Shown here in pieces: positions 32,195-51,985 of a DNA stretch of 64,000 nt. Where the stretch lies: positions 21,199 to 85,198 of the forward strand of contig JBEKKX010000004.1 of NCBI GenBank assembly GCA_050010515.1, given 5' to 3'. The DNA comes from Candidatus Bathyarchaeia archaeon. Its GTDB lineage: Archaea; Thermoproteota; Bathyarchaeia; Bathyarchaeales; Bathycorpusculaceae. A model generated the notes under the pieces. The model searched no databases. It was not told where the DNA came from and saw nothing but the letters and a program-made list of their open reading frames with translations. A program made the position numbers and the translations under genes. Numbering within the stretch: the first letter of the stretch is position 1; each line of letters starts with the position of its first letter.

Positions 32195-32245
32195 ATGAGG
32201 GATCGTCACCTCAATAGCTGGAATCGTCGGGTACTTATTCTTTGA
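32195..32245 (+). promoter_or_regulatory. Candidate ilv-leu leader peptide MRDRHLNSWNRRVLIL
   Basis: ATG 32195 to TGA 32245; the last four codons are Val-Leu-Ile-Leu. Lies 96 nt upstream of ilvB, with TATA-like TTTTAAG at 32161-32167. Confidence 0.6.
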
Positions 32246-32341
32246 TTTTTCCAGGGAACCCTCTGAAACATCCATTGGAAAATTTTCAAATCAATCTTTC
32301 TTTGGACGAGAGTATAGTTATCAAAAAGGAGAAGCAATGAA

Positions 32342-34054
32342 ATGACCAAAATGTCTGGGGCAAAAGTGCTCTTAGAATCCCTTGAACAACAAAACGTGGA
32401 CGTTATATTCGGCATCTTAGGTGGAGCAATACTGCCTGTCTACGATGCATTATGCGGCAACACGAAAATCAGGCACATACTCAGCAGACACGAGCAAGGA
32501 GCAGCTCACGCAGCCGAAGGCTATGCCAGAGCCAGCGGGCGAGTAGGAGTATGCATGGCAACATCAGGGCCAGGAGCTACAAACCTAGTCACAGGAATAG
32601 CAAACGCATACATGGATTCCTCACCAATAATAGCTATAACAGGTCAGGTTCCAACAACAGGCGTTAACACTTCCTACATGATTGGCAAAGACGCCTTCCA
32701 AGAAGCAGACATCATCGGCATCACAACGCCAATTACTAAACACAATTATCAGCCACGAACAATCGCTGAAATCCAACCAATGGTTAACGCAGCATTCTAC
32801 ATAGCTTCCTCAGGCAGACCAGGACCAGTCCTAATCGACTTACCGAAAAACGTGCAAGCTGAAACCGCCGATGTAGAGACAGGAATCATAGACAAAATTG
32901 AAGCCCGAGGCTACAACCCCACGATCAATCCAGATTTAGCAAAAATCAGCGAAGCAGCTAATCTACTTGCAAAAGCTGAGAAACCAATTATACTGGCGGG
33001 AGGCGGAGTCATAATCTCCAACGCTTCAGATGAACTCATGGAAATGTCAGATTTGCTAATAGCACCAGTAGCCACAACTTTGATGGGCAAAGGCGCATTC
33101 CCTGAATGCCATCCCTTATCAGTTGGAAGCATCGGAATGCATGGAAACCCAGCAGCAAACAAGCTGATGGGTGAAGCTGACGTGCTGTTGGCTGTTGGAA
33201 CAAGATTCTCTGACCGCGCCACAGCAAACTTGGACACTTTCTGCTCCAACGCCAAAAAGATTCACATAGACATTGACGCTGCAGAAATTGGAAAAAACAT
33301 CGAAGTCAACGTGCCCATAGTTGGCGACGCCAAAACCTCTATGAAACTATTGCATGCTGCCTTAACGAAGAAACTGCGCAAAAACGAAAGTAGCACTTGG
33401 ACAAAACGAGTTAAAGAAGCCAAAGAACAACTAAGCCCACTGCTGAAAGAGATGCCCAAAGACTTGTTACCAAAAGCGTTATTGACGGAGCTTAGAAGAT
33501 TACTGCCTGAAAATACCATAGTCACCACAGAAGTCGGTCAAAACCAAATGTGGTCAGTTCTATACTTTAAAGCATTAAAGCCGAGAACGTTCATTAGCTC
33601 AGGGGGGTTGGGAACAATGGGTTTCGGTTTTCCAGCAGCGCTAGGAGCGAAAGTTGCCTGTCCAGACAGGCCTGTAGTGGACATAGCGGGCGACGGCAGT
33701 TTCTTAATGACCGAACAAGAACTCGCGTGCTCTATAACGGAGAACATCCCTGTCACAGTCATAGTGCTGAACAATTCGGTGTTAGGGATGGTTGCGCAGT
33801 GGCAAAGAATGCTCTACAAACGCCGCTATATGGCAGTTAACTTGGGAAATACACCTGACTTTGTGAAGCTGGCAGAGGCTTACGGAGCACAAGGCTTCCG
33901 AGTAAGATCAATGGAAGAATTCCAAAAAGCCGTAAAAACCGCGCTAAACAGTAAAGTTACAACTGTAATCGACGTGCCTATCAGCTCAGAGCAGGACGTT
34001 GTGCCATTTGTGCCTCCAGGCTGCGGTTTACCACAACAGAGGGGTGACTACTAA
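32342..34054 (+). CDS. ilvB: Acetolactate synthase large subunit
   Basis: RHEQGAAH, TSGPGATN, FQEAD, GRPGPV and GDGSF..N motifs. Confidence 0.96.
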   Translation: MTKMSGAKVLLESLEQQNVDVIFGILGGAILPVYDALCGNTKIRHILSRHEQGAAHAAEGYARASGRVGVCMATSGPGATNLVTGIANAYMDSSPIIAITGQVPTTGVNTSYMIGKDAFQEADIIGITTPITKHNYQPRTIAEIQPMVNAAFYIASSGRPGPVLIDLPKNVQAETADVETGIIDKIEARGYNPTINPDLAKISEAANLLAKAEKPIILAGGGVIISNASDELMEMSDLLIAPVATTLMGKGAFPECHPLSVGSIGMHGNPAANKLMGEADVLLAVGTRFSDRATANLDTFCSNAKKIHIDIDAAEIGKNIEVNVPIVGDAKTSMKLLHAALTKKLRKNESSTWTKRVKEAKEQLSPLLKEMPKDLLPKALLTELRRLLPENTIVTTEVGQNQMWSVLYFKALKPRTFISSGGLGTMGFGFPAALGAKVACPDRPVVDIAGDGSFLMTEQELACSITENIPVTVIVLNNSVLGMVAQWQRMLYKRRYMAVNLGNTPDFVKLAEAYGAQGFRVRSMEEFQKAVKTALNSKVTTVIDVPISSEQDVVPFVPPGCGLPQQRGDY

Positions 34055-34567
34055 ATGGAAGATGAAAAAACAAAAATAATCTCCGTACTTGTCGAAAATA
34101 AGCCAGGTGTACTTCACAGTGTAGCTAACCTGTTTCGACGGAGAAACTTTAACATTGAAAGCATCACCGTCGGCCCCACTGAAAAGAAAGACTTAGCACG
34201 CATGACAATAACAGTCAACGAAGATGAAAAAACAATCGACCAAGTCATCAAGCAACTGGCAAAGCTCATTGATATACTTAAAGTCGAGGAGCTAGAGCAT
34301 GGAAACTTTGTCATGCGGGAACTGGCTTTGATAAAAGTTAGTGTGTCAAGCCCCAAAGAACGCTCCGACATCATAAACTGCGTAGAAGTCTTCAGAGGCC
34401 GAATCATAGACGTTTCAACCGACAGCTTAACCGTAGAAATCACAGGAACACCAGACAAAATTGACGCGTTCCTAAATCTGATGAAAACAAATGGCGTCAT
34501 TGAACTTGCAAGAACAGGTATAACCGCACTGGCACGAGGAGCAAAATCAATAAGAATCGACGAATAA
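34055..34567 (+). CDS. ilvN: Acetolactate synthase small subunit
   Basis: VENKPGVL..RRNFNIESI, RELALIK and ELARTG motifs. Confidence 0.95.
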   Translation: MEDEKTKIISVLVENKPGVLHSVANLFRRRNFNIESITVGPTEKKDLARMTITVNEDEKTIDQVIKQLAKLIDILKVEELEHGNFVMRELALIKVSVSSPKERSDIINCVEVFRGRIIDVSTDSLTVEITGTPDKIDAFLNLMKTNGVIELARTGITALARGAKSIRIDE

Positions 34568-34579
34568 ATCGTCTCTCCG

Positions 34580-34606
34580 AACGGAAACCCTTAACTTTCC
34601 GTTTTT
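34580..34606 (+). terminator. Hairpin plus T-tract after ilvN
   Basis: AACGGAAA-8 nt-TTTCCGTT followed by TTT. Confidence 0.45.
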
Positions 34607-34675
34607 CAAAAATCAGAAACCTCCACGGTAAATTAATCAAAAATAAATAGTTAATTGTGACAGAAGAGAACAGGT

Positions 34676-35947
34676 ATGAACATTACAGAAAAAATATTGG
34701 CTAAAGCCTCAGGAAAACAAGTCGTGCACTCAGGAGAAATTGTGGACGCAAACGTAGACATGATAATGGTGCATGATTTAACTGGACCTTTAGCCGTTGA
34801 AGCCTTCAAAAAAATAGGAGTAGAAAAAGTTTGGGATAACCAAAAAGTAGTGGTGATTCTGGACCACCAGGTGCCGGCTGAGTCTGTTAAAGCGGCAGAA
34901 CTGCACAAGACCATGCGCCAATTCGCCAAAGACCAAAAACTACGCATATACGACATAGGCAGAGGCGGAATCTGCCACCAAGTCATGCCTGAGAAAGGGC
35001 ATGTGGTTCCTGGAACAGTAATCGTAGGTGCTGATTCCCACACTTGCACCTACGGAGCCTTCGGCGCTTTCGCAACAGGAATAGGCTCAACTGAGGCAGC
35101 AGCAGTCTTTGCTACTGGAAAGATTTGGCTGAAAGTGCCAGAAGCGATTAAAGTAAACGTAACTGGGCAATTTCAAAAGTACGTTACACCAAAAGACTTA
35201 ATCCTATCAATAATTGGACGCGTGAGAGTTGATGGTGCCATATATAAAAGCGTTGAATTCACTGGTCCAACAATAAAAAGCATGAGTATAGCGGGGAGAA
35301 TGACGCTGTGCAATATGGCTGTGGAAATGGGCGCCAAAAACGGCATCATCGAACCTGACGAAACAACTCGCAAGTTCCTAGAAGGCAGAACCAGCAAAGT
35401 ATTGCCCAACTTTGAATCATTGAAAAGTGATAAAGACGCAGTTTACGAGCGGACAGTGGAATTTGATGTCTCAAAGATGGAGCCACAAGTTGCTTGTCCA
35501 TCATCGGTTGATAACGTTAAGCCAGTTTCAGAAGTAGGCAACGTTCCAATTGAGCAGGCGTTTATTGGTTCATGCACCAACGGCAGAATTGAAGATTTAC
35601 GCTTAGCCGCTCAAGTCCTAAAGGGCAAACGTGTAAAAGACAATGTTAGGGCAATTGTGATTCCAGCTTCACAAGAAGTTTACAAGCAAGCGTTAAACGA
35701 AGGCTTACTGGAAATCTTCACTGATGCAGGTGCAATAGTTTGTGGTTCGGCGTGCGGTCCATGCTTAGGCGGTCACATTGGATTATTAGCGGCAGATGAA
35801 GTTTGCGTAAGCACTTCAAATAGGAACTTTATCGGAAGAATGGGCAGCACTCAAGCCAGTGTATACTTGGCTTCGCCAGCAACGGTAGCTGCTTCAGCCG
35901 TCACAGGCAAAATCACTGACCCGAGAAAACTGGAGGCAAAAGCATGA
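34676..35947 (+). CDS. leuC: 3-isopropylmalate dehydratase/homoaconitase large subunit
   Basis: DSHTCT, GSCTNGR, CGPCLG and NRNF motifs. Confidence 0.92.
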   Translation: MNITEKILAKASGKQVVHSGEIVDANVDMIMVHDLTGPLAVEAFKKIGVEKVWDNQKVVVILDHQVPAESVKAAELHKTMRQFAKDQKLRIYDIGRGGICHQVMPEKGHVVPGTVIVGADSHTCTYGAFGAFATGIGSTEAAAVFATGKIWLKVPEAIKVNVTGQFQKYVTPKDLILSIIGRVRVDGAIYKSVEFTGPTIKSMSIAGRMTLCNMAVEMGAKNGIIEPDETTRKFLEGRTSKVLPNFESLKSDKDAVYERTVEFDVSKMEPQVACPSSVDNVKPVSEVGNVPIEQAFIGSCTNGRIEDLRLAAQVLKGKRVKDNVRAIVIPASQEVYKQALNEGLLEIFTDAGAIVCGSACGPCLGGHIGLLAADEVCVSTSNRNFIGRMGSTQASVYLASPATVAASAVTGKITDPRKLEAKA

Positions 35948-36447
35948 ATATGAAAATCAAAGGTCCAGCGATAAAATTCGGAAACAACATTGACACAGAC
36001 GTTATTCTGCCAGGGCAATACTTGGTATTGGTTGACCCTTACGAGTTAGCAAAACATGCCCTAGAAAGCTTAGACCCAAAGTTTCCTGAAAAGGCAAAAA
36101 AAGGCGTCATTGTAGTAGGCGGCAAAAACTTCGGATGCGGCTCAAGCCGAGAACAAGCGCCATTAGCTCTAAAGTACGCAGGCGTAAAATGCGTGTTAGC
36201 AGAATCTTTCGCGCGGATTTTCTTCCGAAACGCCATTAACATCGGCTTACCAGTAATCGAATGCGAAGGCATATCGGCTGTTGTTGAAACAGGTGACGAA
36301 ATAGCCGTGGACATTGAAGCTGGCAAGATAGAAAACATTTCAAAAGGCAAAAGCTTTCAAGTAGACAAGCTGCCACCATTCATAATTGAAATATTAGCAG
36401 ATGGTGGATTAATCGAAAACCTGAGAAGGAGAATTAACAAAAAATGA
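35944..36447 (+). CDS. leuD: 3-isopropylmalate dehydratase small subunit
   Basis: IDTDVI, NFGCGSSREQA and FARIFFRN motifs. Confidence 0.92.
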   Translation: MNMKIKGPAIKFGNNIDTDVILPGQYLVLVDPYELAKHALESLDPKFPEKAKKGVIVVGGKNFGCGSSREQAPLALKYAGVKCVLAESFARIFFRNAINIGLPVIECEGISAVVETGDEIAVDIEAGKIENISKGKSFQVDKLPPFIIEILADGGLIENLRRRINKK

Positions 36448-37481
36448 CAGAATACAAAATATCCCTAATCCCAGGCGACGGCATAGGACCAGAATTAACC
36501 GAAGCTACTCTAAAAGTCCTAGACTCAGCACAGAAAAAATTCGGATTAAATCTCCAAATTATTGAGGCTGAAGCGGGCGACGCAACCTTAGCCAAAAGAG
36601 GCGCCGCACTACCCGAAGACACAGTGCAAAAAATCAAAGAATCCCACGCTTGCCTAAAGGGACCTGTAGGCGAAAGCGCAGCCGACGTCATAGTTAAACT
36701 CAGGTTAATGTTTGATTTGTACGCCAATTTGCGTCCATTGAAGGCTTATCCTAACGTGCCTGTCGCTCGACCCGACATTGATATGATGTTTGTTAGGGAG
36801 AACACTGAGGATGTTTACAAAGGCTTAGAATTCACCATAGGCAACGACACAACTCTGTGCCTAAGAGTAATTACCCGAAAGAATTGCGAGCGCATAGCCA
36901 AAAAAGCCTTCGAAATTGCGCGTTTGCGAAATGGCAAAAAGAAAGTAACTGCCATACACAAAGCCAACGTTATGCGTGTAACCGACGGATTATTCGCCAG
37001 CATATGCCGCGAAACAGCAAAACAATACCCAGACATCGCCTTCAACGAGCTATATGTTGATGCAGCATCGATGCGTCTGATAAAAGAGCCTCAAGAATTC
37101 GATGTATTTTGCACCTGCAACATGTTTGGCGATATCTTATCAGACGAAGCAGCCCAACTTATCGGCGGGTTAGGTATGGCTCCAGGCGCAAACATAGGCG
37201 ACAACTTTGCACTCTTCGAACCCATACACGGTTCAGCACCAAACAGAGCAGGAAAACATACTGCTAACCCAATCTCAATGATACTAGCTGCAAAAATGAT
37301 GCTGGACTGGCTTGGCGAAAAATACAATGATAAAAAATGCATCAAGGCAGGCATGGCAATAGAGAATGGGGTAATATACGCGTTACGTAACGGTCAAACT
37401 GTTCCAGACTGCGGCGGCAACACCACGACCGTGGGAATGGCAGAAGCCATTGCTGCAGCCCTAACAGTGAAAACTGGTTGA
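36444..37481 (+). CDS. leuB: 3-isopropylmalate/isocitrate-family dehydrogenase
   Basis: GDGIGPE, RENTE, HKANV, NMFGDILSD and EPIHGSAP motifs. Confidence 0.88.
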   Translation: MTEYKISLIPGDGIGPELTEATLKVLDSAQKKFGLNLQIIEAEAGDATLAKRGAALPEDTVQKIKESHACLKGPVGESAADVIVKLRLMFDLYANLRPLKAYPNVPVARPDIDMMFVRENTEDVYKGLEFTIGNDTTLCLRVITRKNCERIAKKAFEIARLRNGKKKVTAIHKANVMRVTDGLFASICRETAKQYPDIAFNELYVDAASMRLIKEPQEFDVFCTCNMFGDILSDEAAQLIGGLGMAPGANIGDNFALFEPIHGSAPNRAGKHTANPISMILAAKMMLDWLGEKYNDKKCIKAGMAIENGVIYALRNGQTVPDCGGNTTTVGMAEAIAAALTVKTG

Positions 37482-37485
37482 AAAA

Positions 37486-39009
37486 ATGAACAATAAAACC
37501 TCAAAAAGTATCCGTATTTTTGACACTACCCTAAGAGATGGTGAACAAACACCCGGCGTATCTTTAACCGCCGACGACAAGATTGAGATTGCACGCCAAC
37601 TGAGCAAGCTAGGCGTCGACGTTATCGAAGCAGGTTTTCCAAGCTCCTCAGAAGGCGAAAAAAAAGTTGTCAAAGAGATTGCAAAAGCTGGGTTAGAACC
37701 AGAAATCTGCGCTTTGTCCAGAGCAACAAAAGGCGATATTGATGCAGCAATCGATTGTGACGTTGACCTAATTCATGTTTTTATTCCTACGTCGCCTGTG
37801 CAAATGAAGTACGCCGTGAACTTAACACCTGAACAAGTGCTGTCTTCAACCGTGGAATCTATTGAGTACGTTAAGAAGCATGGTTTCAAATGCGAGTTTT
37901 CGCCAATGGATGCCACGCGCTCAGAAATGCCCTTCTTAAAACACGTTTGCCAAGCAGCAGAGAAAGCAGGAATGGACACTCTAAACGTTCCTGATACCGT
38001 GGGCATAATGATTCCTAAAACAACCATCAAACTCATTGAGAAACTAAAAAATGTAGTTAACGTTCCCATTAGCACGCATTGCCATGATGATTTTGGCTTG
38101 GCAGTTGCAAACTCCTTAGCCGCTGTTGAAGCTGGGGCTGCTCAGGTGCACGTTGCTGTCAACGGGTTAGGTGAGCGTGCGGGCAACGCTTCGCTTGAAG
38201 AAGTGGTTATGGCTTTGCATCTGATTTACAAGTACAAGACAGGCGTAAACACACGGTTATTATACGGCACATCCAGACTGGTTTCGTCGTTAACCGGCAT
38301 AACTGTGCAAGCTAACAAAGCAATTGTGGGCGAAAACGCTTTTGCACATGAGTCAGGCATTCATACTCGTGGCGTAACAGAGAAGCCATTAACTTTTGAG
38401 CCCATAGACCCAGAGTTGGTCGGGCGCACAAGAAAATTAGTTGCAGGAAAACTAGCTGGAACACGCGGCATCAAAGCTGAACTGGAAGAGATAGGGATCC
38501 ACCCAAGCGAAGAGCAAATAAAAGAAATTGTCCAACGCGTCAAAGAACTAGGCGACAAGGGCAAGATGGTGACGGACGCTGATTTATTTGCGTTAACCTC
38601 TGCAGTCATGGGCGAAGTGATAGGTGAAGAAAAAATCGTTGACTTATGCGACCTAGCCGTCGTAACAGGCATCAAAGTAATTCCAACCGCTTCAGTACGG
38701 CTAACTTTGGACGGAAAAGAGTACATTGCAGCAGAAACAGGCGTAGGCCCAGTTGACGCTGTTTTAAAAGCCATCCAAAAACTAACTAATAACCTGGAAA
38801 ATATACGGCTCAGCGAATACCGACTTGAAGCAATCACAGGTGGCTCAAACGCCGTAGCAGAAGTAGTCATAAAAGTCGAGGACGAAAAAGGCAACATTGT
38901 TTCAGCACGTGCAGCAAGAGAAGACATCGTAATGGCTAGTGTTGAAGCAATGATAAACGGTATAAACAAGTGCTTGCTTAAGAGTCGTAAGCAGGGAAAC
39001 AAAAAGTGA
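37486..39009 (+). CDS. leuA: 2-isopropylmalate synthase (LeuA/CimA family)
   Basis: DTTLRDGEQ, HCHDD, GERAGN, HESGIH and a C-terminal regulatory domain (GPVDA). Confidence 0.88.
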   Translation: MNNKTSKSIRIFDTTLRDGEQTPGVSLTADDKIEIARQLSKLGVDVIEAGFPSSSEGEKKVVKEIAKAGLEPEICALSRATKGDIDAAIDCDVDLIHVFIPTSPVQMKYAVNLTPEQVLSSTVESIEYVKKHGFKCEFSPMDATRSEMPFLKHVCQAAEKAGMDTLNVPDTVGIMIPKTTIKLIEKLKNVVNVPISTHCHDDFGLAVANSLAAVEAGAAQVHVAVNGLGERAGNASLEEVVMALHLIYKYKTGVNTRLLYGTSRLVSSLTGITVQANKAIVGENAFAHESGIHTRGVTEKPLTFEPIDPELVGRTRKLVAGKLAGTRGIKAELEEIGIHPSEEQIKEIVQRVKELGDKGKMVTDADLFALTSAVMGEVIGEEKIVDLCDLAVVTGIKVIPTASVRLTLDGKEYIAAETGVGPVDAVLKAIQKLTNNLENIRLSEYRLEAITGGSNAVAEVVIKVEDEKGNIVSARAAREDIVMASVEAMINGINKCLLKSRKQGNKK

Positions 39010-39827
39010 AAGTAGCCTTCCAAGGCGAACGAGGCGCTTACAGCGAAAATGCAGTCTTCCAGTTCTTCGGAGCCGACGCACAGGTTAAACCCTGCAAGGA
39101 CTTCAAGGACGTTTTTGACAGCGTATGCGCTCAGGAAACCCAGCACGGCGTCGTCCCCGTTGAAAACAGCTTGGAGGGCAGTGTGACTCAGAACTATGAC
39201 CTTTTCCTGAAGTATGATTTGAAAGTGTGCGGCGAAGTCATCGTCAAAGTCGAACACTGTCTCATCGCAAACCCCAATACTGCTTTGGCGGACATCAAAG
39301 TTGTTTACTCACATCCGCAAGCGCTGGCACAGTGCCGAATTTTCTTAGAGGAGTTTGGACGCGAACTCATACCGACATATGACACAGCTGGCAGCGTCAA
39401 GATGCTCAAGGAAAAAGGCTTAAACAACGCTGCGGCGATTGCAAGCGAAAGAGCAGCCAACATCTACGGTATGCACATCCTCGCCAAAGACATCGCGGAC
39501 AACCCTGAGAACTACACACGGTTCTTCGTCCTGTCCACAGAGGATTCGCCTGCAACGGGTAAAGACAAAACCAGCATAATCTTCTCAGCCGCCCACAAGC
39601 CAGGCTCACTCTACCATGCACTAGGCGAGTTCGCCAAAAGAGACATTAACCTCACCAAAATTGAATCCCGACCCACCAAAGAAACACCGTGGGAATACAA
39701 CTTCTACTTGGATTTTGAAGGGCACCGCATTGAGAAGCGATGTGCTGAAGCCTTGAACGCGCTGGAGAAGTATGCAGTGTTCATCAAGATTTTAGGCTCA
39801 TATCCTAAAGCTAAATCGTCACAATAA
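39006..39827 (+). CDS. pheA: Prephenate dehydratase
   Basis: GAYSE, PVENS, SHPQALAQC, NYTRF and an ACT domain (LTKIESRP). Confidence 0.95.
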   Translation: MKVAFQGERGAYSENAVFQFFGADAQVKPCKDFKDVFDSVCAQETQHGVVPVENSLEGSVTQNYDLFLKYDLKVCGEVIVKVEHCLIANPNTALADIKVVYSHPQALAQCRIFLEEFGRELIPTYDTAGSVKMLKEKGLNNAAAIASERAANIYGMHILAKDIADNPENYTRFFVLSTEDSPATGKDKTSIIFSAAHKPGSLYHALGEFAKRDINLTKIESRPTKETPWEYNFYLDFEGHRIEKRCAEALNALEKYAVFIKILGSYPKAKSSQ

Positions 39828-39842
39828 GCTTAAATGGATGAT

Positions 39843-39860
39843 TGTAACATACTTGTTACA
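39843..39860. promoter_or_regulatory. Palindromic operator candidate for the MNT-HEPN module
   Basis: TGTAACA-TACT-TGTTACA between a TATA-like TTAAA (39830-39834) and ATG 39862. Confidence 0.55.
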
Positions 39861-43934: not shown

Positions 43935-45043
43935 TATTTCTGTCTCTCCAAGACTTTCGGTATAAAGCCCGCGCGAATCATGTGGTCAGCTAAGGTTATG
44001 GCGACCGCAGATTCTACGGCTGGCACGGCTTTTGGGACAACACAGGGGTCATGCCTACCCTTAATGCTAATACGCGCGTCTTCCATCGTAGACAGATTAA
44101 CGGTCTTCTGTTCTTTGCCAATGGAAGGTGTTGGTTTTATTGCTACCTGCATCATGATCGGCATGCCAGTGGATATTCCGCCCAAGATTCCGCCTGCATT
44201 ATCCGTTGCGGTTGCAACTTTTCCGTTCTGCATAATGTAGGGGTCGTTGCTTTCTGAGCCCTTTAACTCTGCAACTCTAAACCCCAAGCCGAACTCTACG
44301 CCTTTTACAGCGGGAACATTAAACAACGCTTTTGCTAAATCAGCATCAAGTGAATCAAACAGTGGCTCGCCAACGCCTACTGGAACGTTTAGGGCAATGC
44401 ATTCAACTATTCCGCCAAGACTATCGCCTTCTTTTCTAGCGTCAACTATGGCTTTCTCCATGCGTTCTGCACAGGCTAAGTCTGGACACCGGGTAGCCGC
44501 TGTGTACCTGTTCTTGCGGATTTCCTGGGCACTAAACTTTTTATCACTTTTAACTTTGCCAACTGCTCTGGTATAAGCTAAAACGTCAACGTCGAATCTG
44601 CTTAGCAATTTTTTAGCTATTGCTCCAGCCATGATGAGTGCGACTGTGAGTCTGCCTGAGAAGCGTCCGCCGCCTCGGTAATCGTTAAAGCCACCATACT
44701 TTACACGTGCAGGGTAATCGGCGTGTCCTGGTCTTGGCAGGTCCTTGATTGCTTCGTAATCGCTTGAGTCAACCTCCTTATTCTCAACCATCAAAGCGAT
44801 TGGAGCACCAGTTGTAAAACCGTTAAAAACCCCTGAAAGAATTTGGGCAATGTCTTTTTCGAGTCTTCCAGAAACGATTTTCGGCTCTGCTGGAATGCGC
44901 CTATCCAGTTCCACTTGGATGTCTGCTTCAGAAAGAGGTAATCCAGCTGGACAACCGTCCACGACTGCGCCGACGTGTTTGCCGTGGCTTTCGCCGAAAG
45001 TGGTTACTGTGAATTCTTTACCTATCGAATTTCCCGCCAACAA
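43934..45043 (-). CDS. aroC: Chorismate synthase
   Basis: GESHG, PRPGHAD, GGGRFSGR and GRHDPC motifs. Confidence 0.96.
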   Translation of the reverse strand: MLAGNSIGKEFTVTTFGESHGKHVGAVVDGCPAGLPLSEADIQVELDRRIPAEPKIVSGRLEKDIAQILSGVFNGFTTGAPIALMVENKEVDSSDYEAIKDLPRPGHADYPARVKYGGFNDYRGGGRFSGRLTVALIMAGAIAKKLLSRFDVDVLAYTRAVGKVKSDKKFSAQEIRKNRYTAATRCPDLACAERMEKAIVDARKEGDSLGGIVECIALNVPVGVGEPLFDSLDADLAKALFNVPAVKGVEFGLGFRVAELKGSESNDPYIMQNGKVATATDNAGGILGGISTGMPIMMQVAIKPTPSIGKEQKTVNLSTMEDARISIKGRHDPCVVPKAVPAVESAVAITLADHMIRAGFIPKVLERQK

Positions 45044-46346
45044 TTTCAGCTCCTATTTGTCTTAAATGAGTGAAGAACTGCGGATAAGACTTTCTAACGC
45101 ACTCAGCGTTTTGAACAGTGGTTTGCCCTTCCGCGCCTAGGGCTGCAACCGCGCAAGCCATCGCAATACGGTGGTCATTATGAGGGTCAATTACTGCACC
45201 ATGCAAGGTACATGGGCCTGTTACGGTTAGGCTGCTGGAATTTGCTTCTAATTGTGCACCCATTTTCCCCAATTCGGCACTAATTGATGATAATCTATCT
45301 GATTCTTTAAGCCTGAGTCTTTGAGCGCCGGTTATTTTTGAAGAGTCCTTCGCATAACATGCAAGAACAGCACAGACTGGGAATAGGTCAGGGATGTTCT
45401 TTGCATCAACAGTCAAAGCCTCAAGCGGACTGCCGGTTCCATCTATTTCGACACTGTTCTCGCACACTTTTCCGGCGACACCCATCTGCTTGAGTATACC
45501 CAGAATCGCTTTGTCGCCTTGAGCGCTCTCATTATCAAGATCATTTACTTGCACTTTTGAGTTTGTTATGGCTGCGGCTGCAAGAAGAAATGCGGCTGAA
45601 GAGAAGTCGCCCGGTACCCTGCGGTCACAGGGCTTGTATGTTTGATTGGCTGGAATAACAATGCGCTTGAAGTTATCATAAATTTCTACCCTAACGCCAT
45701 GCGTCTCAAGAACATCGGTGGTCATTTTAACGTAATCAGCCGACTCCAAAGGCGTTGTAAGAAGGATTTCTGTGTCGACTTTTGCCATTGGACAGGCAAA
45801 CATTAAACCTGAGATAAACTGGGAACTGACGTTGCCGGCAATAGAGGTTTTGCCTCCAAGAATGCCGCCTCCTTCAACAAATACGGCATCTTTCGTTTTT
45901 TCTTTTCCGTTTTCTTGGATGTGGATTTTTTTGGTGCGAGCTTTGGCACCGAGTTCATCAAGGCTTTTAAGCAAAGGCTCGATAGGTCTGCGTTCAAGAG
46001 AACCTTTGAAAACCAAGATTGACGGGTCAGGCGCCAAGGCAGCTATGGGTATCATGAAACGCAGTGTAGCTCCAGATTCACCGCAGTCAATCGGCGCTTT
46101 AGCATTTTGAAGAGGTGTTGAACCCTTAATGTTCCAGCAATGTTCCTCAAATTTCGTTTCTGCGCCCAACGCTGTGATAGCACGTAAAGTTGCTTCTGTA
46201 TCATCGGACAGCAGAGGGTTTGACACTTTTCCCTCGCCATTTGAGAGAGCCGCGGCTATGAGCATTCGCTGAGTATAAGACTTTGATGGAGGAGCACAAA
46301 CTTCGCCGCTTAGTCGCTCGGTTTTTTTGACGATTACATCTACCAT
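45018..46346 (-). CDS. aroA: EPSP synthase
   Basis: PPSKS, ESGATLR, SSQFISGL, KESDR and DHRIAMA motifs. Confidence 0.96.
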   Translation of the reverse strand: MVDVIVKKTERLSGEVCAPPSKSYTQRMLIAAALSNGEGKVSNPLLSDDTEATLRAITALGAETKFEEHCWNIKGSTPLQNAKAPIDCGESGATLRFMIPIAALAPDPSILVFKGSLERRPIEPLLKSLDELGAKARTKKIHIQENGKEKTKDAVFVEGGGILGGKTSIAGNVSSQFISGLMFACPMAKVDTEILLTTPLESADYVKMTTDVLETHGVRVEIYDNFKRIVIPANQTYKPCDRRVPGDFSSAAFLLAAAAITNSKVQVNDLDNESAQGDKAILGILKQMGVAGKVCENSVEIDGTGSPLEALTVDAKNIPDLFPVCAVLACYAKDSSKITGAQRLRLKESDRLSSISAELGKMGAQLEANSSSLTVTGPCTLHGAVIDPHNDHRIAMACAVAALGAEGQTTVQNAECVRKSYPQFFTHLRQIGAEIVGGKFDR

Positions 46347-46349
46347 CGG

Positions 46350-47219
46350 CTAGAGCACCTTAGCTTTCTCGCGGTTCAAGCGCGCCTCTAAGACTTTGCC
46401 ATCATACTTCTGTAAAGCGGCTTTCACTGAATCAATTTTGTCCTTAGACGTGACTGCTGTTACCGCTGGTCCTTTGCCGCATAATCCAGCTGCTACTGCT
46501 CCAGCAGCTAGCGCATCAATCGCAATTGAAGTGTTGTATCCTGAGGCTGAGGAGTAAATCAAGCCGTTAAGCGTCAATGCCTCCCAAACCTTTCCCTCCA
46601 AAGCTTCCTTGTACGCAACTTCGACAAGTGGTTTCACCGTTTGCAGCCTGCGCACGTTAGAGTCGGCTGTGTACGCTTTTTCAGGCGGTACATGGAACAG
46701 CACCGTTAAGTCTTCAGCCAACGGGAACTGCTTAACTATTTCTCGGCTCAAGTTGTCAGTAATTACGATGCCGCCGAAGTATGAAGCGCAAGCGTCATCG
46801 AAAGCGCCTGTTACAGTCACTTTTGCGTCGAAAGCAGCATCTACGCCCAAATTGACGAGTTCCAAGTCGTCAAGCGTTTTGTCTAACGCCGCTGTGGCTG
46901 CTAGGGCTACTGCGTTTGCGGCTGCACTGCTGCTTTTTAATCCTTTGGCGATGGGAATGTTTGACCAAGTTTTTACTTTGGCTCCAAAACTATTATCCAA
47001 ACTGAACAGCTTGAGAACCCTCATCACGGTTTTTTCCATTAAGGCGGTATTTTCTTTGGGATCAGAAGTTATTTCTGCTTTGATAACATGAGGTTCATCT
47101 GTTAATTTTACTTCTGCTTTAGTCCACAAATCAACTCCGAATGCCGCACCTTTGCCGAATGCCATTGCGTTAACGATTGTTGCCGCGCCATGAGCTATAG
47201 CCGTAGCTTTTCCAGTCAA
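46350..47219 (-). CDS. aroK: Archaeal (GHMP) shikimate kinase
   Basis: GLKSSSA, VTGAFDDA and GKGPA motifs. Confidence 0.93.
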   Translation of the reverse strand: MTGKATAIAHGAATIVNAMAFGKGAAFGVDLWTKAEVKLTDEPHVIKAEITSDPKENTALMEKTVMRVLKLFSLDNSFGAKVKTWSNIPIAKGLKSSSAAANAVALAATAALDKTLDDLELVNLGVDAAFDAKVTVTGAFDDACASYFGGIVITDNLSREIVKQFPLAEDLTVLFHVPPEKAYTADSNVRRLQTVKPLVEVAYKEALEGKVWEALTLNGLIYSSASGYNTSIAIDALAAGAVAAGLCGKGPAVTAVTSKDKIDSVKAALQKYDGKVLEARLNREKAKVL

Positions 47220-47223
47220 CCTT

Positions 47224-48081
47224 CTACACCGTCCGCATGTGATTAAGCGCTGCCTTCCTCATAACTTCAACCGGCGCCTTGCAACCGGTCCAGATTTCAA
47301 AGGATGCAGTGCCTTGATAAATTAACATTTCAACCCCACTTACTACTTTGGCTCCTGCAGCTTTAGCGTCCTTCGCTAACTTGGTTTCAATTGGATTGTA
47401 CACTATGTCCATTACTGCCAAGTCAGGTTTGAGCCATTCGGGTGCTACAGGGGTTTGGTTGGCGTTTGGTTTCATTCCGACTGAAGTGGCGTTAATGAGC
47501 ACATCGGCATCAGCAAGGTTATCTTTGACTGCATTTGGCGAAAACTCGCCTGCGCTGATTTTTTTCTTGAACTTTTGTTTTAAGAGGTCAGCTAACTCGG
47601 CGGCTGGTTTAGGTGTACGATTCAAAATTACCAGTTCATCAGCTTCCTGCGCAAGAATGTATGCTATGGCTCTTGCGGCGCCGCCTGCTCCAAGCAACAG
47701 CACCTTTTTGCCTCTTGGCTCAACGCCGTTCTCTCTTAGAGCTTTTAGGGCTCCGATGCCGTCAGTGTTAAAGCCAAAGAGTCTTCCATCCTTGTTAAGG
47801 ATAGTATTTACTGAGCCTATGGTTTTAGAAGCTTGGTCAATTTCATCTAAGCAGTTGATGACTGTGCTTTTGTGTGGCATGGTTACGTTTAACCCGTGAA
47901 TGGTCAAGGCTCGCATTCCGCTTATGGCGTTTCCGACTTCAGCCGGTTTTACTTTGAACGCTAAAAATACGTAGTCCAGTTTCAAAGCTTCAAACGCTGC
48001 ATTATGCATGATTGGGCTTAGCGTGTGCTCTATTGGGTCACCGATTACTCCGCAAACTCGTGTTTTTCCTGAAATAACCAT
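47224..48081 (-). CDS. aroE: Shikimate dehydrogenase
   Basis: LSPIMHN, NVTMPHK, NTDG and GAGGAA motifs. Confidence 0.95.
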   Translation of the reverse strand: MVISGKTRVCGVIGDPIEHTLSPIMHNAAFEALKLDYVFLAFKVKPAEVGNAISGMRALTIHGLNVTMPHKSTVINCLDEIDQASKTIGSVNTILNKDGRLFGFNTDGIGALKALRENGVEPRGKKVLLLGAGGAARAIAYILAQEADELVILNRTPKPAAELADLLKQKFKKKISAGEFSPNAVKDNLADADVLINATSVGMKPNANQTPVAPEWLKPDLAVMDIVYNPIETKLAKDAKAAGAKVVSGVEMLIYQGTASFEIWTGCKAPVEVMRKAALNHMRTV

Positions 48082-48086
48082 CTTAT

Positions 48087-48767
48087 TTATGCCCCCAGGA
48101 GGTCGTAAGTAGCCTTCATTTCTTGAACAGTCATTTGCCCTGCCGCGGTTTCGCTACCCTGCTCAAGCGAAGCGAATGTGAAGAATGCACCAAACATTGG
48201 TGAGAGAAGCCTGGAAATCTTGCCTTGCTCACCCATGCAGAAACAGACAAGTTTAGCCTTGCTTGACATGGAAGAAACAAAATTCAGCACTGACAGGTTA
48301 TCTTCGATTTTCTTTGCAGTTGTCACTATTTTGCAGACGATGGCTCCACTGGCAATTTCTTGCTTCAGAACCGTTTCCATTTCATAAACGCTTAATGCGC
48401 CGTCGAATTTGTGGTAGGAAACGATTGGTTTAGCGCCCAATAGCTTGAGTTTGCCGATTGTTTCTTTATGTTTTGGGCTTGACAGGTCAACGTCAACATA
48501 TCCGAAGCCGTTCTTGGCAGCGTTCAGTAATGTTTGTTGCCGTTCCGTTTCTGTTCCAGCAAAAAAGCCTTTTTCACTCGAGAGCTTGTTTGTTGCGATC
48601 AACGGAATTTTTGTGCTTTTAACAAGTTCTGATAGGTTTCTGGACGCTTCAAGGCAGTCTAGCCTAACTTCTATGAGGTTTGCTTGGGCTTTTTCTGCCC
48701 TCTCGATGAGACTTAACGCTTCAAGATTATTTTTTGGGAGAATCGAGACGCAGATTCTCGCTGTCAC
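48087..48767 (-). CDS. aroD: Type I 3-dehydroquinate dehydratase
   Basis: EVRLD, SYH, CKIV, MGEQGKISR and AAGQ motifs. Confidence 0.92.
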   Translation of the reverse strand: MTARICVSILPKNNLEALSLIERAEKAQANLIEVRLDCLEASRNLSELVKSTKIPLIATNKLSSEKGFFAGTETERQQTLLNAAKNGFGYVDVDLSSPKHKETIGKLKLLGAKPIVSYHKFDGALSVYEMETVLKQEIASGAIVCKIVTTAKKIEDNLSVLNFVSSMSSKAKLVCFCMGEQGKISRLLSPMFGAFFTFASLEQGSETAAGQMTVQEMKATYDLLGA

Positions 48768-49804
48768 TTTTCTATCACCGTTTCTTCAGGCACGGATACG
48801 CCGAAGTGTCGGCCTCCTTTCGCGGCTATGTGCACTAGAACTTCATCGTTTGGTTTTAGTTCTGTTACTGGTTTTGAAGCTTTCGGCGTTACTAGTCGTA
48901 TGGTTTCCGCGTTTTGAAGTATAATCTTGATTTTTGTGTCGCCAACTTGGGCTTCGATTAGGATTAGGGGGCGAAACTCGATTTTTGACCGCCCCACGTT
49001 TGTTATTCGGGCTTTTCCTTCCCTATTAATGATTAAAACTTCGTCGCCCGCTTTCAACTCGGACAGATACCGAGTACCCTGCAGAGAAGTTAACGTGTAG
49101 TTTGACGCTGCCCCAGCGTTTACCCGAAAAGGCCTAGAATTTACGTAGGGGTTTTCATTTACTTCAGCCTCTACAAGAAAGAAGCCTGCAGATTGGCATC
49201 CAACCAGCATTCCTTCGCCCAGAACCATTAAGTCAACAGTGTCCACGCAGACTCTGGCTCCACTGCTAATAGGCTTTGTAGATACAATTTTAGCCGTTGT
49301 TAACGTTAATTTTGGGGTTTGCTCTTTAACCATTTTGGCTGTTTTTTTAAGCTCGTTGGGGTTTGAGGTTTTGAGCAGCACACCATCGGTTCCCAGTTCT
49401 AAGGCTTCAAGAACCAGTTTTGCGTCTTCAGCAGTGCCTACCTCAGCGATTAGTTTGCTTTTGCCTCTTGCCTTTGCAATTAGATTTTCAAGCGGAATTA
49501 CCCGCCAATCAAGGCAATTAATGATAACGTAGTCAACCCCGAGTTCTGCCGCTTTAACGGCTGTGTTTTCATCTTCTTTTCCCTTTATATTGATTTTGAT
49601 GGCGGTTTTTTTGCCCTCACTTTTGTCTTGGAAGATTTTTTTCTCGTTTAGTTCGGTTAGGAAGATTATGTTTAATTTGTCAGGGAAGGTACTGATTTCA
49701 GTATTTTGGATAATACCATCAGCGAATTCCTCAGATAGGCGAAGTAAAGTTTCTTTTTCTTTCGGTGAAGCAGCTTGGTCTATTTCTACCCATAGTTCTT
49801 TCAA
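48764..49804 (-). CDS. 3-dehydroquinate synthase II (AroB')
   Basis: WRVIPLENLIA, RVCVDT, RPFRVNAG and ILQNAETI motifs. Confidence 0.93.
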   Translation of the reverse strand: MKELWVEIDQAASPKEKETLLRLSEEFADGIIQNTEISTFPDKLNIIFLTELNEKKIFQDKSEGKKTAIKINIKGKEDENTAVKAAELGVDYVIINCLDWRVIPLENLIAKARGKSKLIAEVGTAEDAKLVLEALELGTDGVLLKTSNPNELKKTAKMVKEQTPKLTLTTAKIVSTKPISSGARVCVDTVDLMVLGEGMLVGCQSAGFFLVEAEVNENPYVNSRPFRVNAGAASNYTLTSLQGTRYLSELKAGDEVLIINREGKARITNVGRSKIEFRPLILIEAQVGDTKIKIILQNAETIRLVTPKASKPVTELKPNDEVLVHIAAKGGRHFGVSVPEETVIEK

Positions 49805-50592
49805 GCTTTTTCACCGAGAATTTTAAGCGCTTGCTCCACGCTAGCGCCGTCATGAACGATTGCTGAGAGCGCTTTAACTATTAAGGTTGGGTTCTCGTTT
49901 TGGAACACGTTTCGTCCAATGGAGAGTCCTGCGGCGCCAGCTTTTATTGAGTCATGGGTGGTTTGGAGGATTTCTTGGGATGTTTTGCATTTTGGTCCTC
50001 CTGCTATTATGACTGGAACGGGGCAGCTTTCGACGACTGTTTTGAAGGTGTCTATGTTGCCTGTGAAGTTTGCTTTAATTATGTCTGCGCCTAGTTCAGC
50101 GCCGATTCTTGCAGCGTGGGCTACCACGTCAGGTGCATGTTCGTTTTGTATTTTTGGTCCACGAGGGTACATCATTGCGAGTAGTGGCATGCCGTATATG
50201 TCGCATTCGTCGGCTACTTTGCCCAAGTTGCTTAGCATTTTGTCCTCGTCTTGTGCACCAACGTTCACGTGCACAGAGACCGCGTCTGCACCTAAGCGTA
50301 TAGCTTCTTGGACGGAGCATACTTGGACTTTACTGTTTATGTTTGGGCTTAGGTCTGACATGCCTGATAACTGTACTATTAAACCTACGTTTCCAGTATC
50401 AACATGCTTAGCTATGCCCTTGTGGACTAGTACGGCGTCAACTCCCCCCTTGAGGAGTTGGTTGATAATTTGTTGCATGTTAACTATTCCTTGGATTGGT
50501 CCGATTGTTACGCCGTGGTCCATGGGTACGATTACTGTGCGGTTGTCTTTTTGCATGATTCTTTTTATTCGTCGTGTTTTTCCTTCGTTCAT
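49801..50592 (-). CDS. 2-amino-3,7-dideoxy-D-threo-hept-6-ulosonate synthase (AroA', DhnA aldolase family)
   Basis: PMDHG, MMYPRG, ELGADIIK, AGG and GRNVFQ motifs; adjacent to DHQ synthase II. Confidence 0.92.
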   Translation of the reverse strand: MNEGKTRRIKRIMQKDNRTVIVPMDHGVTIGPIQGIVNMQQIINQLLKGGVDAVLVHKGIAKHVDTGNVGLIVQLSGMSDLSPNINSKVQVCSVQEAIRLGADAVSVHVNVGAQDEDKMLSNLGKVADECDIYGMPLLAMMYPRGPKIQNEHAPDVVAHAARIGAELGADIIKANFTGNIDTFKTVVESCPVPVIIAGGPKCKTSQEILQTTHDSIKAGAAGLSIGRNVFQNENPTLIVKALSAIVHDGASVEQALKILGEKA

Positions 50593-50609
50593 GTTCTATC
50601 ACCTTTTGC

Positions 50610-51848
50610 TTATTTGGGACTCCTTAATGAGTTTTTAATTAACTTCAAGGCTTTTTCACGTTCATTCCAATCTACAAAGAGCAGAATGCTTGATGTTATG
50701 GTTAGAATGCCTGAAATGTTTATGCCATTCAATCTGAGGTCTTCGCTGATTTTTCCTATTATGCCGTGGGTCTCTTCTAAGCCGACACCGCTTGTTTTTA
50801 TGAAGACTAGGTCTTTTTTGACTGCCATCGCTATGGTTTCTTTGTTGCTCTTTGTTATTTCATGGATATCGTTGAAGAGCGCGTCTAAGTTTTTTTCTTG
50901 AGAAGCGTATAGTATGATTGAGTTTGTGTTCATTGACATGCCGAGAAGCAGGGAGTGCTGTTTGGTTTTTTCCACCATTTCTTGGATGATTTGGGGATTT
51001 GCAGAGATGCCGTTTCCGATTACTGTTATCTCGGCGACTGGAAAGGGATGTGCCATTTCCGCGTCCAGTTCACTTGCTAATGCACCTGTGATTACTGTGC
51101 CCTCTTTAGTCAAGTTGCTGTGCGCGTGGTTGATTACTCGGACGTTGATGTTTTTTGGTTTGTACTTTAAGGCTTTGCTGTGAATAAATTTGGCGCCTGA
51201 ATCAGCTAAGCCTACTAAAGTGTTAACGTCGATTTCTCTTAGGCGTTCTGGGTTGGAGACAGTCTTGGGATCACCTGACATTATGCCGTCTGCATCGGTG
51301 ACTAAGACGATTTCATCAGCGTTTAATGCTTCAGCTAGAATAAACGCGGTTGTGTCGCTGCCGCCTCTTCCGAGAGTGGTGATTTTGCCATCTTTAGTTT
51401 TTCCGAGGAAGCCAGCGACTACTGGTATTATGCCCTTTTCCATAATCGGCAGTATACATTCACGAATATTTTTTTCGCTATCTTTCAGGATTGGATTCGC
51501 ATTTTGGAATGCTGAGTCGGTTATTATTGGCCAGTTGTTGTCTATTGGGTCGAAGTAGCAGGATTCTGCGCCGTTAGTTTTTAGCGCAGCGGCGAATATT
51601 CTTATGCTGGTTCTTTCGCCCATTGAGAGGATGTCGTCTAAGTCTTTTTTTTCCAGTTTTCCGTTGGAAGCGTTTTTCGCTGTTGCCATGAGGACATCAG
51701 TTGTTTTGCCCATAGCGGAAACTACAACGGCGATACGCGTGCCTTTTTTTGCTTCGTTTACGACGGCAACAACCGCTTTTAACAGTCTTTCGTGATCCGA
51801 TAGGCTGGAGCCACCGAATTTAACCACAATTTTTTTGTTATTTTCCAT
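50610..51848 (-). CDS. Aspartate kinase
   Basis: KFGGSS, VVSAMG.TTD, TLGRGGSDTTA, DPK and C-terminal ACT domains. Confidence 0.93.
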   Translation of the reverse strand: MENNKKIVVKFGGSSLSDHERLLKAVVAVVNEAKKGTRIAVVVSAMGKTTDVLMATAKNASNGKLEKKDLDDILSMGERTSIRIFAAALKTNGAESCYFDPIDNNWPIITDSAFQNANPILKDSEKNIRECILPIMEKGIIPVVAGFLGKTKDGKITTLGRGGSDTTAFILAEALNADEIVLVTDADGIMSGDPKTVSNPERLREIDVNTLVGLADSGAKFIHSKALKYKPKNINVRVINHAHSNLTKEGTVITGALASELDAEMAHPFPVAEITVIGNGISANPQIIQEMVEKTKQHSLLLGMSMNTNSIILYASQEKNLDALFNDIHEITKSNKETIAMAVKKDLVFIKTSGVGLEETHGIIGKISEDLRLNGINISGILTITSSILLFVDWNEREKALKLIKNSLRSPK

Positions 51849-51866
51849 TTGTTACACCCATTTTGC

Positions 51867-51901
51867 GCCCAGAACTTTTTTTAAAATTTTCAGTTCTGAG
51901 C
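51867..51901 (-). promoter_or_regulatory. 10-bp hairpin between the aromatic leader ORF and aspartate kinase
   Basis: mRNA GCUCAGAACU-15 nt-AGUUCUGGGC (9 Watson-Crick pairs + 1 GU), beginning at the first nucleotide after the leader stop. Confidence 0.7.
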
Positions 51902-51985
51902 TTAGTAAAAATAATAATAAAAGTAGTAGCCGAAGCTAAGGAACTGTGATGTACTGTTTTCTTTCTTGCTTTTGCAATTAGACAT
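51902..51985 (-). promoter_or_regulatory. Candidate Phe/Tyr leader peptide MSNCKSKKENSTSQFLSFGYYFYYYFY
   Basis: ATG 51985 to TAA 51902 with 8 consecutive Tyr/Phe codons before the stop. BRE/TATA-like CGAAA..CTTATATT near 52026-52039; 53 nt upstream of the aro operon. Confidence 0.8.

Follow-up and report, generated by a model that had tools for sequence, protein, structure and literature searches.

Candidate translated amino-acid sensors and +1 frameshift modules upstream of biosynthetic genes in Bathyarchaeia

We analysed a 64,000-nucleotide (nt) stretch of DNA from an uncultured Candidatus Bathyarchaeia archaeon, hereafter the window (GenBank assembly GCA_050010515.1, contig JBEKKX010000004.1, positions 21,199 to 85,198 of the forward strand), in which the operons for branched-chain (ilv-leu) and aromatic (aro) amino acids each have a short open reading frame (ORF) upstream of the first gene. 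Our reading, to which we give a probability of roughly 60%, is that both are cis-acting translated amino-acid sensors that read the supply of charged tRNA, by two different devices. An earlier note on this DNA had seen one shared architecture at the two operons, with codons matched to each pathway. The match holds, in that both operons have conserved and apparently translated 5′ ORFs carrying codons of their own pathway; the shared architecture does not, as aro has a run of codons and a stop abutting a hairpin whereas ilv has single putative sensor codons in a leader overlapped by a +1 frame. Elements related to the ilv leader precede trpE, a paralogue of LeuA/CimA and the his operon, and we consider it about an even bet that together they form a Bathyarchaeia regulon of sense-codon +1 frameshift switches, each a portable module placed after the start codon, beside the stall-type aro leader. 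The strongest independent points are the recurrences across families, two natural trpE variants that are in frame, and a putative Ile sensor codon that changes only synonymously.

The genome (G000) is a 2.38-Mb archaeal assembly of 66 contigs with 42.6% G+C, in which the window is G000:C4:21199-85198. For the ilv, trpE, LeuA/CimA-paralogue and his elements we compared 30 same-genus loci each, and for aro the 30 best ADH synthase loci, drawn from 61 genomes (36 of the same genus) and then oriented. A further ilv set consisted of 76 species-level Bathyarchaeia genomes sharing the exact 22-nt head of the ilv leader; 62 of them were analysed, the ilvB anchor having failed in 13 and one match lying too close to the end of its locus.

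The ilv leader and its overlapping frame

The ilv-leu operon (ilvB, ilvN, leuC, leuD, leuB, leuA and pheA; 32342-39827, plus strand) is preceded on the same strand by a zero-frame leader ORF, MRDRHLNSWNRRVLIL, at 32195-32245, together with a TATA-like box, cTTTTTATTTg (32138-32147, kept in the 30 loci), an AGAGG Shine-Dalgarno (32183-32187) and UUUUU after the stop. The leader is present in 30 of 30 same-genus loci, and its first 13 codons are near-invariant at the nucleotide level. The earlier note had placed the sensing codons in the Val-Leu-Ile-Leu (VLIL) tail against the stop. The ORF, TATA box and U-tract of that description are all there, but the tail is kept in just 12 of the 30 loci, Val13 being followed elsewhere by QLF, QIL, QLL, HIL, YFF, HFY, LFC and others; in the further genomes the residues after it are LIL in 19 of 62. 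Four Ile, Leu or Val residues before a stop are not unusual given the frequency of these residues in intergenic short ORFs (0.243, or by our own arithmetic about 0.0035 per ORF for four at the end), and the VLIL-against-stop arrangement is, on this comparison, lineage-specific.

What is constant lies further upstream, in two five-codon modules. The first, AGG GAU CGU CAC CUC (32198-32212), ends on Leu codon 6, and CAC at codon 5 and CTC at codon 6 are found in 30 of 30 loci. The second, UGG AAU CGU CGG GUA (32219-32233), ends on Val codon 13, which is GTA in all 30 loci and in 62 of the 62 further genomes, where it falls outside the pattern used for the search.

The leader is overlapped by a +1 frame, GIVTSIAGIVGYLFFDFSREPSE and onward to GEAMK and a stop (32199-32345, plus), which has no canonical start. 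It opens right after a UGA that overlaps the leader AUG (AUGA), and its stop overlaps the ilvB ATG (ATGA). This frame is open for 46-51 codons and ends between -5 and +8 nt from the ilvB ATG in 29 of 30 loci, while the other two frames contain 117 and 85 stops over the same 30 stretches. Among the further genomes its median length is 48 codons, and in 57 of 62 it ends -5 to +9 nt from the ilvB ATG. The layout is shared with two genomes of other families despite diverged sequence. In G039 the element reads AUG AGG GAU CGU UUC CUU and the +1 frame, 47 codons long, ends 9 nt before ilvB; in G050 it reads GUG AGG GAU AGC CGG GUA CGG AGG AAU CGU UUC AUC, the +1 frame having 55 codons and stopping 2 nt short of ilvB.

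A helix, CUGGA (32218-32222) with UCCAG (32250-32254), encloses module 2, the VLIL codons and the stop. Both arms differ between the combinations CUGGG/CCCAG (21 genomes) and CUGGA/UCCAG (7 genomes), and there are also several mismatched ones. The earlier note had proposed a stem starting at the leader stop, which this conserved CUGGR/YCCAG helix, with the stop codon in its loop, does not bear out.

A Phe/Tyr codon run and hairpin before the aro operon

All aro features lie on the minus strand. The promoter, read from the sequence, has a B recognition element (BRE) and TATA box, ccgaaatgcTTATATttt (52023-52040), and the motif ccgaaacgcTTATATttt is kept upstream of the leader in the same-genus loci. 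The leader ORF (51902-51985) has 27 codons and a TAA and encodes MSNCKSKKENSTSQFLSFGYYFYYYFY. Phe and Tyr make up nine of its last ten residues, directly before the TAA and within a U-rich tract, and the putative sensor run of eight codons, UAC UAC UUU UAU UAU UAU UUU UAC (51905-51928), abuts the stop. We scored 33,736 intergenic short ORFs of the genome for residue bias in windows of 6-10 residues; among those with a long ORF within 400 nt downstream the aro leader ranks second (binomial p of 1.8e-8 for its 9/10 bias). First comes an ORF of 46 residues whose biased run, of Gly, is not at the stop but about 32 residues from the end. Trp-, Arg- and His-rich short ORFs from the same scan were dropped as coding or in unrelated contexts, without family annotation.

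A homologous ORF of 17-29 codons lies 41-65 nt upstream of the aspartate kinase gene in 29 of 30 same-genus loci, the thirtieth (L005) being interrupted by a contig end. The N-terminal half is variable, while the reading frame and the motif SF[DEG]Y.FYY are kept in the 29 loci, where the last Phe or Tyr codon is the last to fourth-last sense codon. All indels within the ORF are of 3 or 6 nt (against 1-6 nt for those of the hairpin loop), Tyr codons vary synonymously between UAC and UAU, and Phe and Tyr swap. These patterns point to a translated frame in which the aromatic codons, not the peptide, matter. Fourteen of the 29 leaders (within loci L002-L029) end Phe-Pro-stop. We also considered a frameshift reading for aro and rejected it: in neither of the other frames, +1 or +2, is the way to the aspartate kinase start consistently free of stops, which makes this a stop-terminated leader.

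A diverged homologue, MNSQSMTTLTYSSMFYSFSYYFYN, is found in another family of the same order (G052, G060), where the operon runs aspartate kinase, aspartate-semialdehyde dehydrogenase, ADH synthase and the leader is followed by a GCCCA...UGGGC hairpin, then UUUUU and a GGAGUG Shine-Dalgarno. Seven smaller genomes of the order (L127-L133) show no such leader in the roughly 3 kb that precede ADH synthase.

Two helices are predicted in the aro leader. Box A, AGGUUCGAAGC (51990-52000), judged by its distance from the TATA box, is probably at or near the 5′ end of the transcript; it forms the 5′ arm of a helix enclosing the leader start codon, whose 3′ arm is box B, AGCUUCGGC (51929-51937, the codons for Ser-Phe-Gly). 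RNAalifold pairs the two boxes, as does the centroid fold of the window sequence, and across the relatives GGUUCGAAGC, just 5′ of the AUG, pairs with AGCUUCGA (Ser-Phe-Asp/Glu codons), with a change on both sides in L026 (AAGU with AACUUC). The second helix, D:E, is a hairpin after the stop (51867-51901) found by both RNAalifold and the centroid fold, with a 10-bp stem GCUCAGAACU/AGUUCUGGGC in the window and the form GCCCAGAACU-loop-AGUUCUGGGC in the same-genus loci. Its 5′ arm begins 1 nt after the leader stop in 29 of 29 loci. Five of its pairs are invariant in the RNAalifold consensus and four show only one-sided G-U changes, while the tenth, closing the loop, is broken in 5 of 29 loci; the loop is A/U-rich, with U4 in the window and U5-U7 in most relatives.

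RNAalifold on the 29 leaders gives two separate helices with no shared segment, and thus no mutually exclusive terminator and antiterminator pairing; nor did inspection find an alternative partner for either hairpin arm. Searches of both leader regions against Rfam (cmscan, E up to 10) returned only chance-level matches to unrelated families. The aro layout given in the earlier note, from the TATA box through the Phe/Tyr-packed ORF to a stem at the stop, is confirmed. Its further statement that a GC hairpin with poly-U is absent is right for this genus and fails in the sister family, where UUUUU follows the same hairpin.

About 6 nt past the hairpin lies the GGGTG Shine-Dalgarno (51855-51859) of aspartate kinase, the first aro gene (50610-51848; NF005159, 380.6 bits against a cut-off of 379). 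The remaining genes (within 41694-50592) encode ADH synthase, DHQ synthase II, aroD, aroE, an archaeal shikimate kinase, aroA, aroC, and lastly chorismate mutase, an aminotransferase and tyrA. The operon thus opens with an aspartate kinase of its own, to which the sister family (L125/L126) adds an aspartate-semialdehyde dehydrogenase; aspartate semialdehyde would seem to be made here specifically for the archaeal ADH-synthase route, under Phe/Tyr control. The gene for prephenate dehydratase, pheA (39006-39827, plus), is the last of the ilv-leu operon and so lies outside the aro operon, and the aro leader still mixes Phe and Tyr codons.

Related modules elsewhere in the genome

A module of the form NGG-RAU-YGY-NNN followed by a cognate codon is common to ilv (twice), trpE, the LeuA/CimA paralogue and his (twice, with CAU). 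At trp it reads GGG AAU CGC CUU UGG, at the paralogue GGG UAU UGC UUU AUU, and at ilv, as lined up with the other elements, module 2 reads UGG GAU CGU CGG GUA. The ilv elements of the other families contribute AGG GAU CGU UUC CUU (G039) and the pair AGG GAU AGC CGG GUA and AGG AAU CGU UUC AUC (G050); sister-family trp leaders have AGG GAU AAU GUU/UUU UGG; and his has AGG GAU UGC GUU CAU in frame 0 and GGC GAU UGC SUU CAU in the +1 register. The last codon of the module is always cognate to the pathway (UGG, AUU/AUC, CUC, GUA, CAU/CAC). A rough, post hoc estimate of our own puts the probability that codon 6 is cognate in the four G000 elements at the order of 1e-5. The P-site codon is preceded, at a distance of 2 nt, by GGGAUC or GGGAAUC, which is similar to the Shine-Dalgarno sequence GGUGAU used in the window. 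Judged by general-knowledge pairing rules, re-pairing after a +1 slip would be good at trp and his (GUU_C/AUU_C), partial at the paralogue (UUU_A) and for CGG_G, and poor for CAC_C.

In G000 the first canonical start of the trpE frame (C8 ~7880-8340, minus) comes only after 154 codons, and nowhere else in the genome is such a gap as long. Relative to TrpE, the head AUG GGG AAU C(G/A)C CUU UGG is in the -1 frame in 28 of 30 same-genus loci (L064-L093), where the frame from its AUG, the only conserved start, stops 9-23 codons later. The TrpE frame has no canonical start at all in 18 of these 28, and the other 10 have an in-frame start whose position is not conserved. The P-site codon is CUU_U in 25 of the out-of-frame loci and AUU_U in 3. 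The remaining loci, L074 (CUU UGC) and L083 (CUU GAC), are in frame from the AUG into TrpE and differ exactly at the Trp codon. Some 40-60 nt ahead of the trp leader AUG (L064-L093), immediately 5′ of the TATA box CCTTAAATAA, stands a palindrome, GTACA-N5-GTAC, which we take to resemble the TGTACA boxes bound by TrpY in methanogens. With this palindrome beside its TATA box the trp operon may carry both a repressor and a translational sensor.

A similar arrangement is found at a second synthase of the LeuA/CimA family (G000:C15 ~10290-11817, minus; LEU1_arch, 541 bits), which lies 2-3 kb from the ilv leader in several genomes. Of 30 loci (L134-L163), 29 have the invariant head (A/G)UG GGG UAU UGC UUU AU(U/C) CAA CCG CUU CCC UAA and encode the enzyme in the +1 frame, which in 22 of these 29 has no canonical start. 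Codon 6 varies only between AUU (25 loci) and AUC (4 loci), a change that is synonymous in frame 0 but exchanges Phe and Ser in the enzyme; in L145 this codon is the last of frame 0 before the stop. The enzyme is possibly a citramalate synthase, which an Ile sensor codon would fit.

Upstream of hisG (G000:C2 ~82990-83160, minus; L094-L123) a near-invariant AUG AGG GAU UGC GUU CAU ... GGC GAU UGC SUU CAU U(G/A)A is followed by a +1-frame stop 0-3 codons past the second CAU module. A frame of 60-65 codons overlaps the hisG start and is open in 29 of 30 loci. The two CAU modules are suggestive only, either of a double His-codon switch or of a plain upstream ORF. Thus the genome-wide system suspected in the earlier note survives in a modified form, with related elements at trpE, the paralogue and the his operon; at trp and his, which it had named as operons to examine, the module ends on the cognate codon, though his needs no frameshift.

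General scans added little. The pattern ATG[AG]GG[AG]A[TC][CT]G has 12 matches across the genome against about 14.5 expected; of these only the ilv and his matches precede a gene on the same strand, and we rejected two more that are intergenic. As many as 296 short ORFs in the genome have a second frame that stays open and ends close to the start of a gene, which makes this criterion uninformative. We also rejected a Thr-rich short ORF, MKITTITTTATGTIHSNPCSI (G000:C27:111-176, minus), as a thr leader, because it abuts a 120-nt contig-end repeat and has no counterpart in 40 same-genus genomes. The identical stretch of about 120 nt terminates seven G000 contigs (C27:1-122, C47:1-122, C63:1-121, C60:1-120, C12:64869-64989, C7:72947-73067 and C2:101056-101175) and is found in relatives as well. 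Most likely it marks the end of an insertion element whose multiple copies interrupt the assembly. Another repeat, dispersed and about 50 nt long, has 17 matches in G000.

Elsewhere in the window, a LysW-type lysine/arginine cluster (LysK-like hydrolase, LysJ, LysZ, LysY/ArgC, LysX-like; 17879-23294, minus) has a divergent LysM regulator (23809-24219; 164.7 bits against a cut-off of 180), as the earlier note had described. Directly 3′ of pheA lie a 190-residue protein with weak matches to MntA-type nucleotidyltransferases and helix-turn-helix domains and then a 160-residue ORF with no family match (39838-40855, plus), which could be a toxin-antitoxin-like pair. An ORF of about 60 codons beginning MCEFNVILNGKVQFKDVIYVKVEGDN, read by eye, lies between the ilv promoter region and thrB (31760-31950, minus).

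Proposed mechanism, alternatives and known systems

From the ORFs and their conservation, the frame relations, the modules with their cognate codons and the helices described above we infer stalling, the frameshift itself, the direction of regulation and the part played by the aro hairpin. At aro, when Phe- or Tyr-tRNA is short, a ribosome stalled on the last Phe/Tyr codons would cover the 5′ arm of the hairpin and the operon would be expressed; with good supply the ribosome would terminate and leave, the hairpin would form and expression would fall, either through termination at the nearby U-tract or by hindrance of the Shine-Dalgarno 6 nt downstream. The A:B helix would close the start region of the leader itself once box B is free of ribosomes.

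At ilv, ribosomes would initiate at the conserved AUG and meet two sensors, Leu codon 6 and Val codon 13, each ending a module. A slowly decoded sensor codon would lead to a +1 shift into the frame of about 48 codons, which would carry the ribosome through the spacer to a stop on the ilvB start, and its arrival could switch on ilvB translation by unfolding of the mRNA or by termination-reinitiation; without a slip the ribosome would stop after 16 codons. At trpE and the paralogue, scarce cognate tRNA would leave the A site empty, the peptidyl-tRNA would slip +1 (CUU_U, UUU_A) and the enzyme would be made, whereas with ample tRNA a peptide of 10-16 residues would be made and released. Within such a regulon the enzyme would be made only after a slip at trpE and at the citramalate/isopropylmalate-synthase paralogue, while the slip would carry ribosomes via a spacer ORF at ilvB and possibly, by two successive His-codon slips, at hisG. 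By analogy with RF2 frameshifting, the G-rich start of the module could serve as a Shine-Dalgarno-like stimulator.

Several observations weigh against this picture. The compared genomes are of related species, so that the counts do not represent independent events and overstate independence. At aro, covariation is thin, both helices being near-invariant (one double change in A:B, none in D:E), and the whole leader fold is not unusually stable (z of -1.14). The U-run in this genus sits in the loop and none lies 3′ of the hairpin, whose negative role is thus an assumption. The ilv leader fold is likewise no more stable than shuffles (z of +0.30), the +1 frame ends early or late in one of 30 loci (L050, with an earlier stop) and in 5 of 62 further genomes, and its tail lacks codon periodicity, which would put its openness, not its product, under selection. 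Re-pairing at ilv is also poor: the module 1 P-site CAC cannot re-pair and CGG in module 2 would only partly do so on GGG. The TrpE frame of the sister family has an AUG of its own 8 nt ahead of the leader stop, so that the frameshift form may derive from a form with overlapping leader. The frame reaching hisG has a conserved GUG and AGGUG of its own, so that no frameshift is needed there and a plain upstream ORF would suffice. Finally, the role of the stimulator is an analogy only, as the 3′ end of 16S rRNA is not in the assembly.

Three other explanations need to be weighed. Archaeal termination depends on oligo-U and involves aCPSF1/FttA. As the earlier note's coupling of stalling to U-tract-dependent termination would have it, the U-rich Phe/Tyr tract of aro and the U-run downstream could be a terminator of this kind, masked by a stalled ribosome and exposed by a departing one, by analogy with the masking of a Rho site by the ribosome at tnaC. 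The sensor run is indeed predicted to be single-stranded between the two helices, U5-U7 lies within about 20 nt of the stop in most relatives, and in the sister family UUUUU follows the hairpin. We nevertheless consider this explanation unlikely, as the U-run in the loop is only U4 in the window, L004 and L019 and is absent in L026 and L030, and the invariant sequence of the hairpin arms would be left unexplained. It also says nothing on the ilv, trp and cimA-like elements, where the +1 frame must be read.

More doubtful still is that the conserved heads are binding sites for proteins or RNA (operators or structured RNA), with the short ORFs and open frames as by-products; the direct repeats GGGAUCGUC (twice at ilv) and GAUUGCGUUCAU (twice at his), for instance, could bind an Lrp/TrpY-type regulator or an RNA-binding protein. 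The heads are indeed near-invariant in their nucleotides and hold direct repeats, TGTACA-like palindromes adjoin the trp TATA box, the neighbouring lys cluster is under a LysM regulator, and the ilv and his tails have no codon periodicity. But a binding site gives no reason for a frame of about 48 codons without a start to remain stop-free in three families when the other frames contain 3-4 stops per locus, and it explains neither the missing start codons of the TrpE and paralogue frames nor the cognate last codon of every module; besides, the elements lie downstream of TATA boxes and beside Shine-Dalgarno sequences. We regard it as similarly improbable that the +1 frames are read without a regulated slip, by non-canonical initiation (for example at AUC/AUA after the AUG) or constitutive slippage, the cognate codons acting, if at all, by stalling alone. 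The variation in the ilv head follows the periodicity of the +1 frame (mean column entropy 0.035/0.156/0.304 at positions 1/2/3), which together with the poor P-site re-pairing at ilv would suit such a scheme. Yet trpE of L074 and L083 keeps its frame from the AUG over the first five codons and is changed exactly at CUU UGG, with stops closing the +1 frame from the start; moreover, the Shine-Dalgarno spacing suits the AUG and not a codon 4-7 nt further on, and the +1 frames hold no canonical start.

Sensing by translation, as we propose it, can be compared with several known systems. Like the pheL-pheA, trpL, hisL and ilvL attenuators, aro has an upstream short ORF with a cognate run near its end and a hairpin, and the ribosome would sense charged tRNA. 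The E. coli pheL peptide ends Phe-Pro-stop, as do the 14 aro leaders noted above. The last codon and stop of pheL are CCC_UGA, preceded by Phe, and a passage of one review relates that the Pro-stop context slows termination, with incidental +1 frameshifting (PMC5009743). Aro differs from the enterobacterial attenuators in its archaeal host, its TATA/BRE promoter, and its lack of overlapping terminator/antiterminator pairings, of an Rfam leader match and, in this genus, of a U-run after the stem; with a hairpin starting 1 nt past the stop, the ribosome itself would act as the anti-hairpin. Ilv departs further from attenuator leaders, having no cognate run but single Leu and Val codons at fixed positions. 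The polycysteine leaderless short ORFs of mycobacteria, presented in a preprint as Cys-responsive attenuators (bioRxiv 10.1101/834739), are similar in that operonic genes are controlled by short upstream ORFs with cognate codons, no classical terminator/antiterminator being involved, and different in being bacterial and leaderless, with codon runs and no frameshift.

The trpE and paralogue elements are closest to the RF2 gene (prfB; CUU UGA C), whose main product lies in the +1 frame, has no start of its own and is preceded by a short zero frame; this general design is described in part of Atkins et al. 2016 (PMC5009743). The likeness extends to the shift site CUU U at trp, to a putatively slow A-site codon as sensor and to a G-rich element a few bases upstream. 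Here, however, the host is archaeal and the proposed sensor is not a stop but a sense codon for the product of the pathway (UGG, AUU/AUC, CUC, GUA, CAU), and at ilv the +1 frame makes no enzyme and would only take ribosomes to the next start codon. A model for ilv is the ketolide-induced ermC leader, for which the same review states that frameshifted ribosomes enter the spacer, unfold the mRNA and permit ermC initiation (PMC5009743). There the trigger is an antibiotic on a bacterial ribosome, here we propose a shortage of cognate aminoacyl-tRNA, and the new frame of ilv ends exactly on the downstream start codon. At Ty1 (CUU AGG C) and at hungry codons, according to another passage of that review, a peptidyl-tRNA slips +1 on NUU before a slow codon (PMC5009743). 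Ty1, however, senses a rare tRNA and sets a product ratio, and hungry-codon shifts are described as errors, not as control of biosynthetic operons.

To our knowledge leader-peptide attenuation, a textbook matter in bacteria, has not been shown in Archaea, although archaeal transcription and translation are coupled. Our literature search, with subscription journals and supplements outside its reach, found no archaeal case of a leader peptide or sensor frameshift. A 2021 review of archaeal recoding, in the part available to us, lists one reported -1 frameshift in cells, besides a few viral ones and one presumed for magnesium chelatase, and that part mentions neither "tryptophan" nor "amino acid biosynthesis" (PMC8211752). 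If our reading is true, then, it would bring ribosome-mediated, attenuation-like control and amino-acid feedback by programmed frameshifting to Archaea, and would supply concrete, compact sequences of 18-160 nt on which such sensing of amino acids by the ribosome can be tested in this domain. A biosynthetic enzyme translated only after a +1 slip at the codon of its own end product would be a design undescribed in any domain. Gene callers would be truncating or mis-starting trpE and the LeuA/CimA paralogue throughout a widespread lineage of soil, peat and gut, and the short modules might serve as portable amino-acid-responsive switches.

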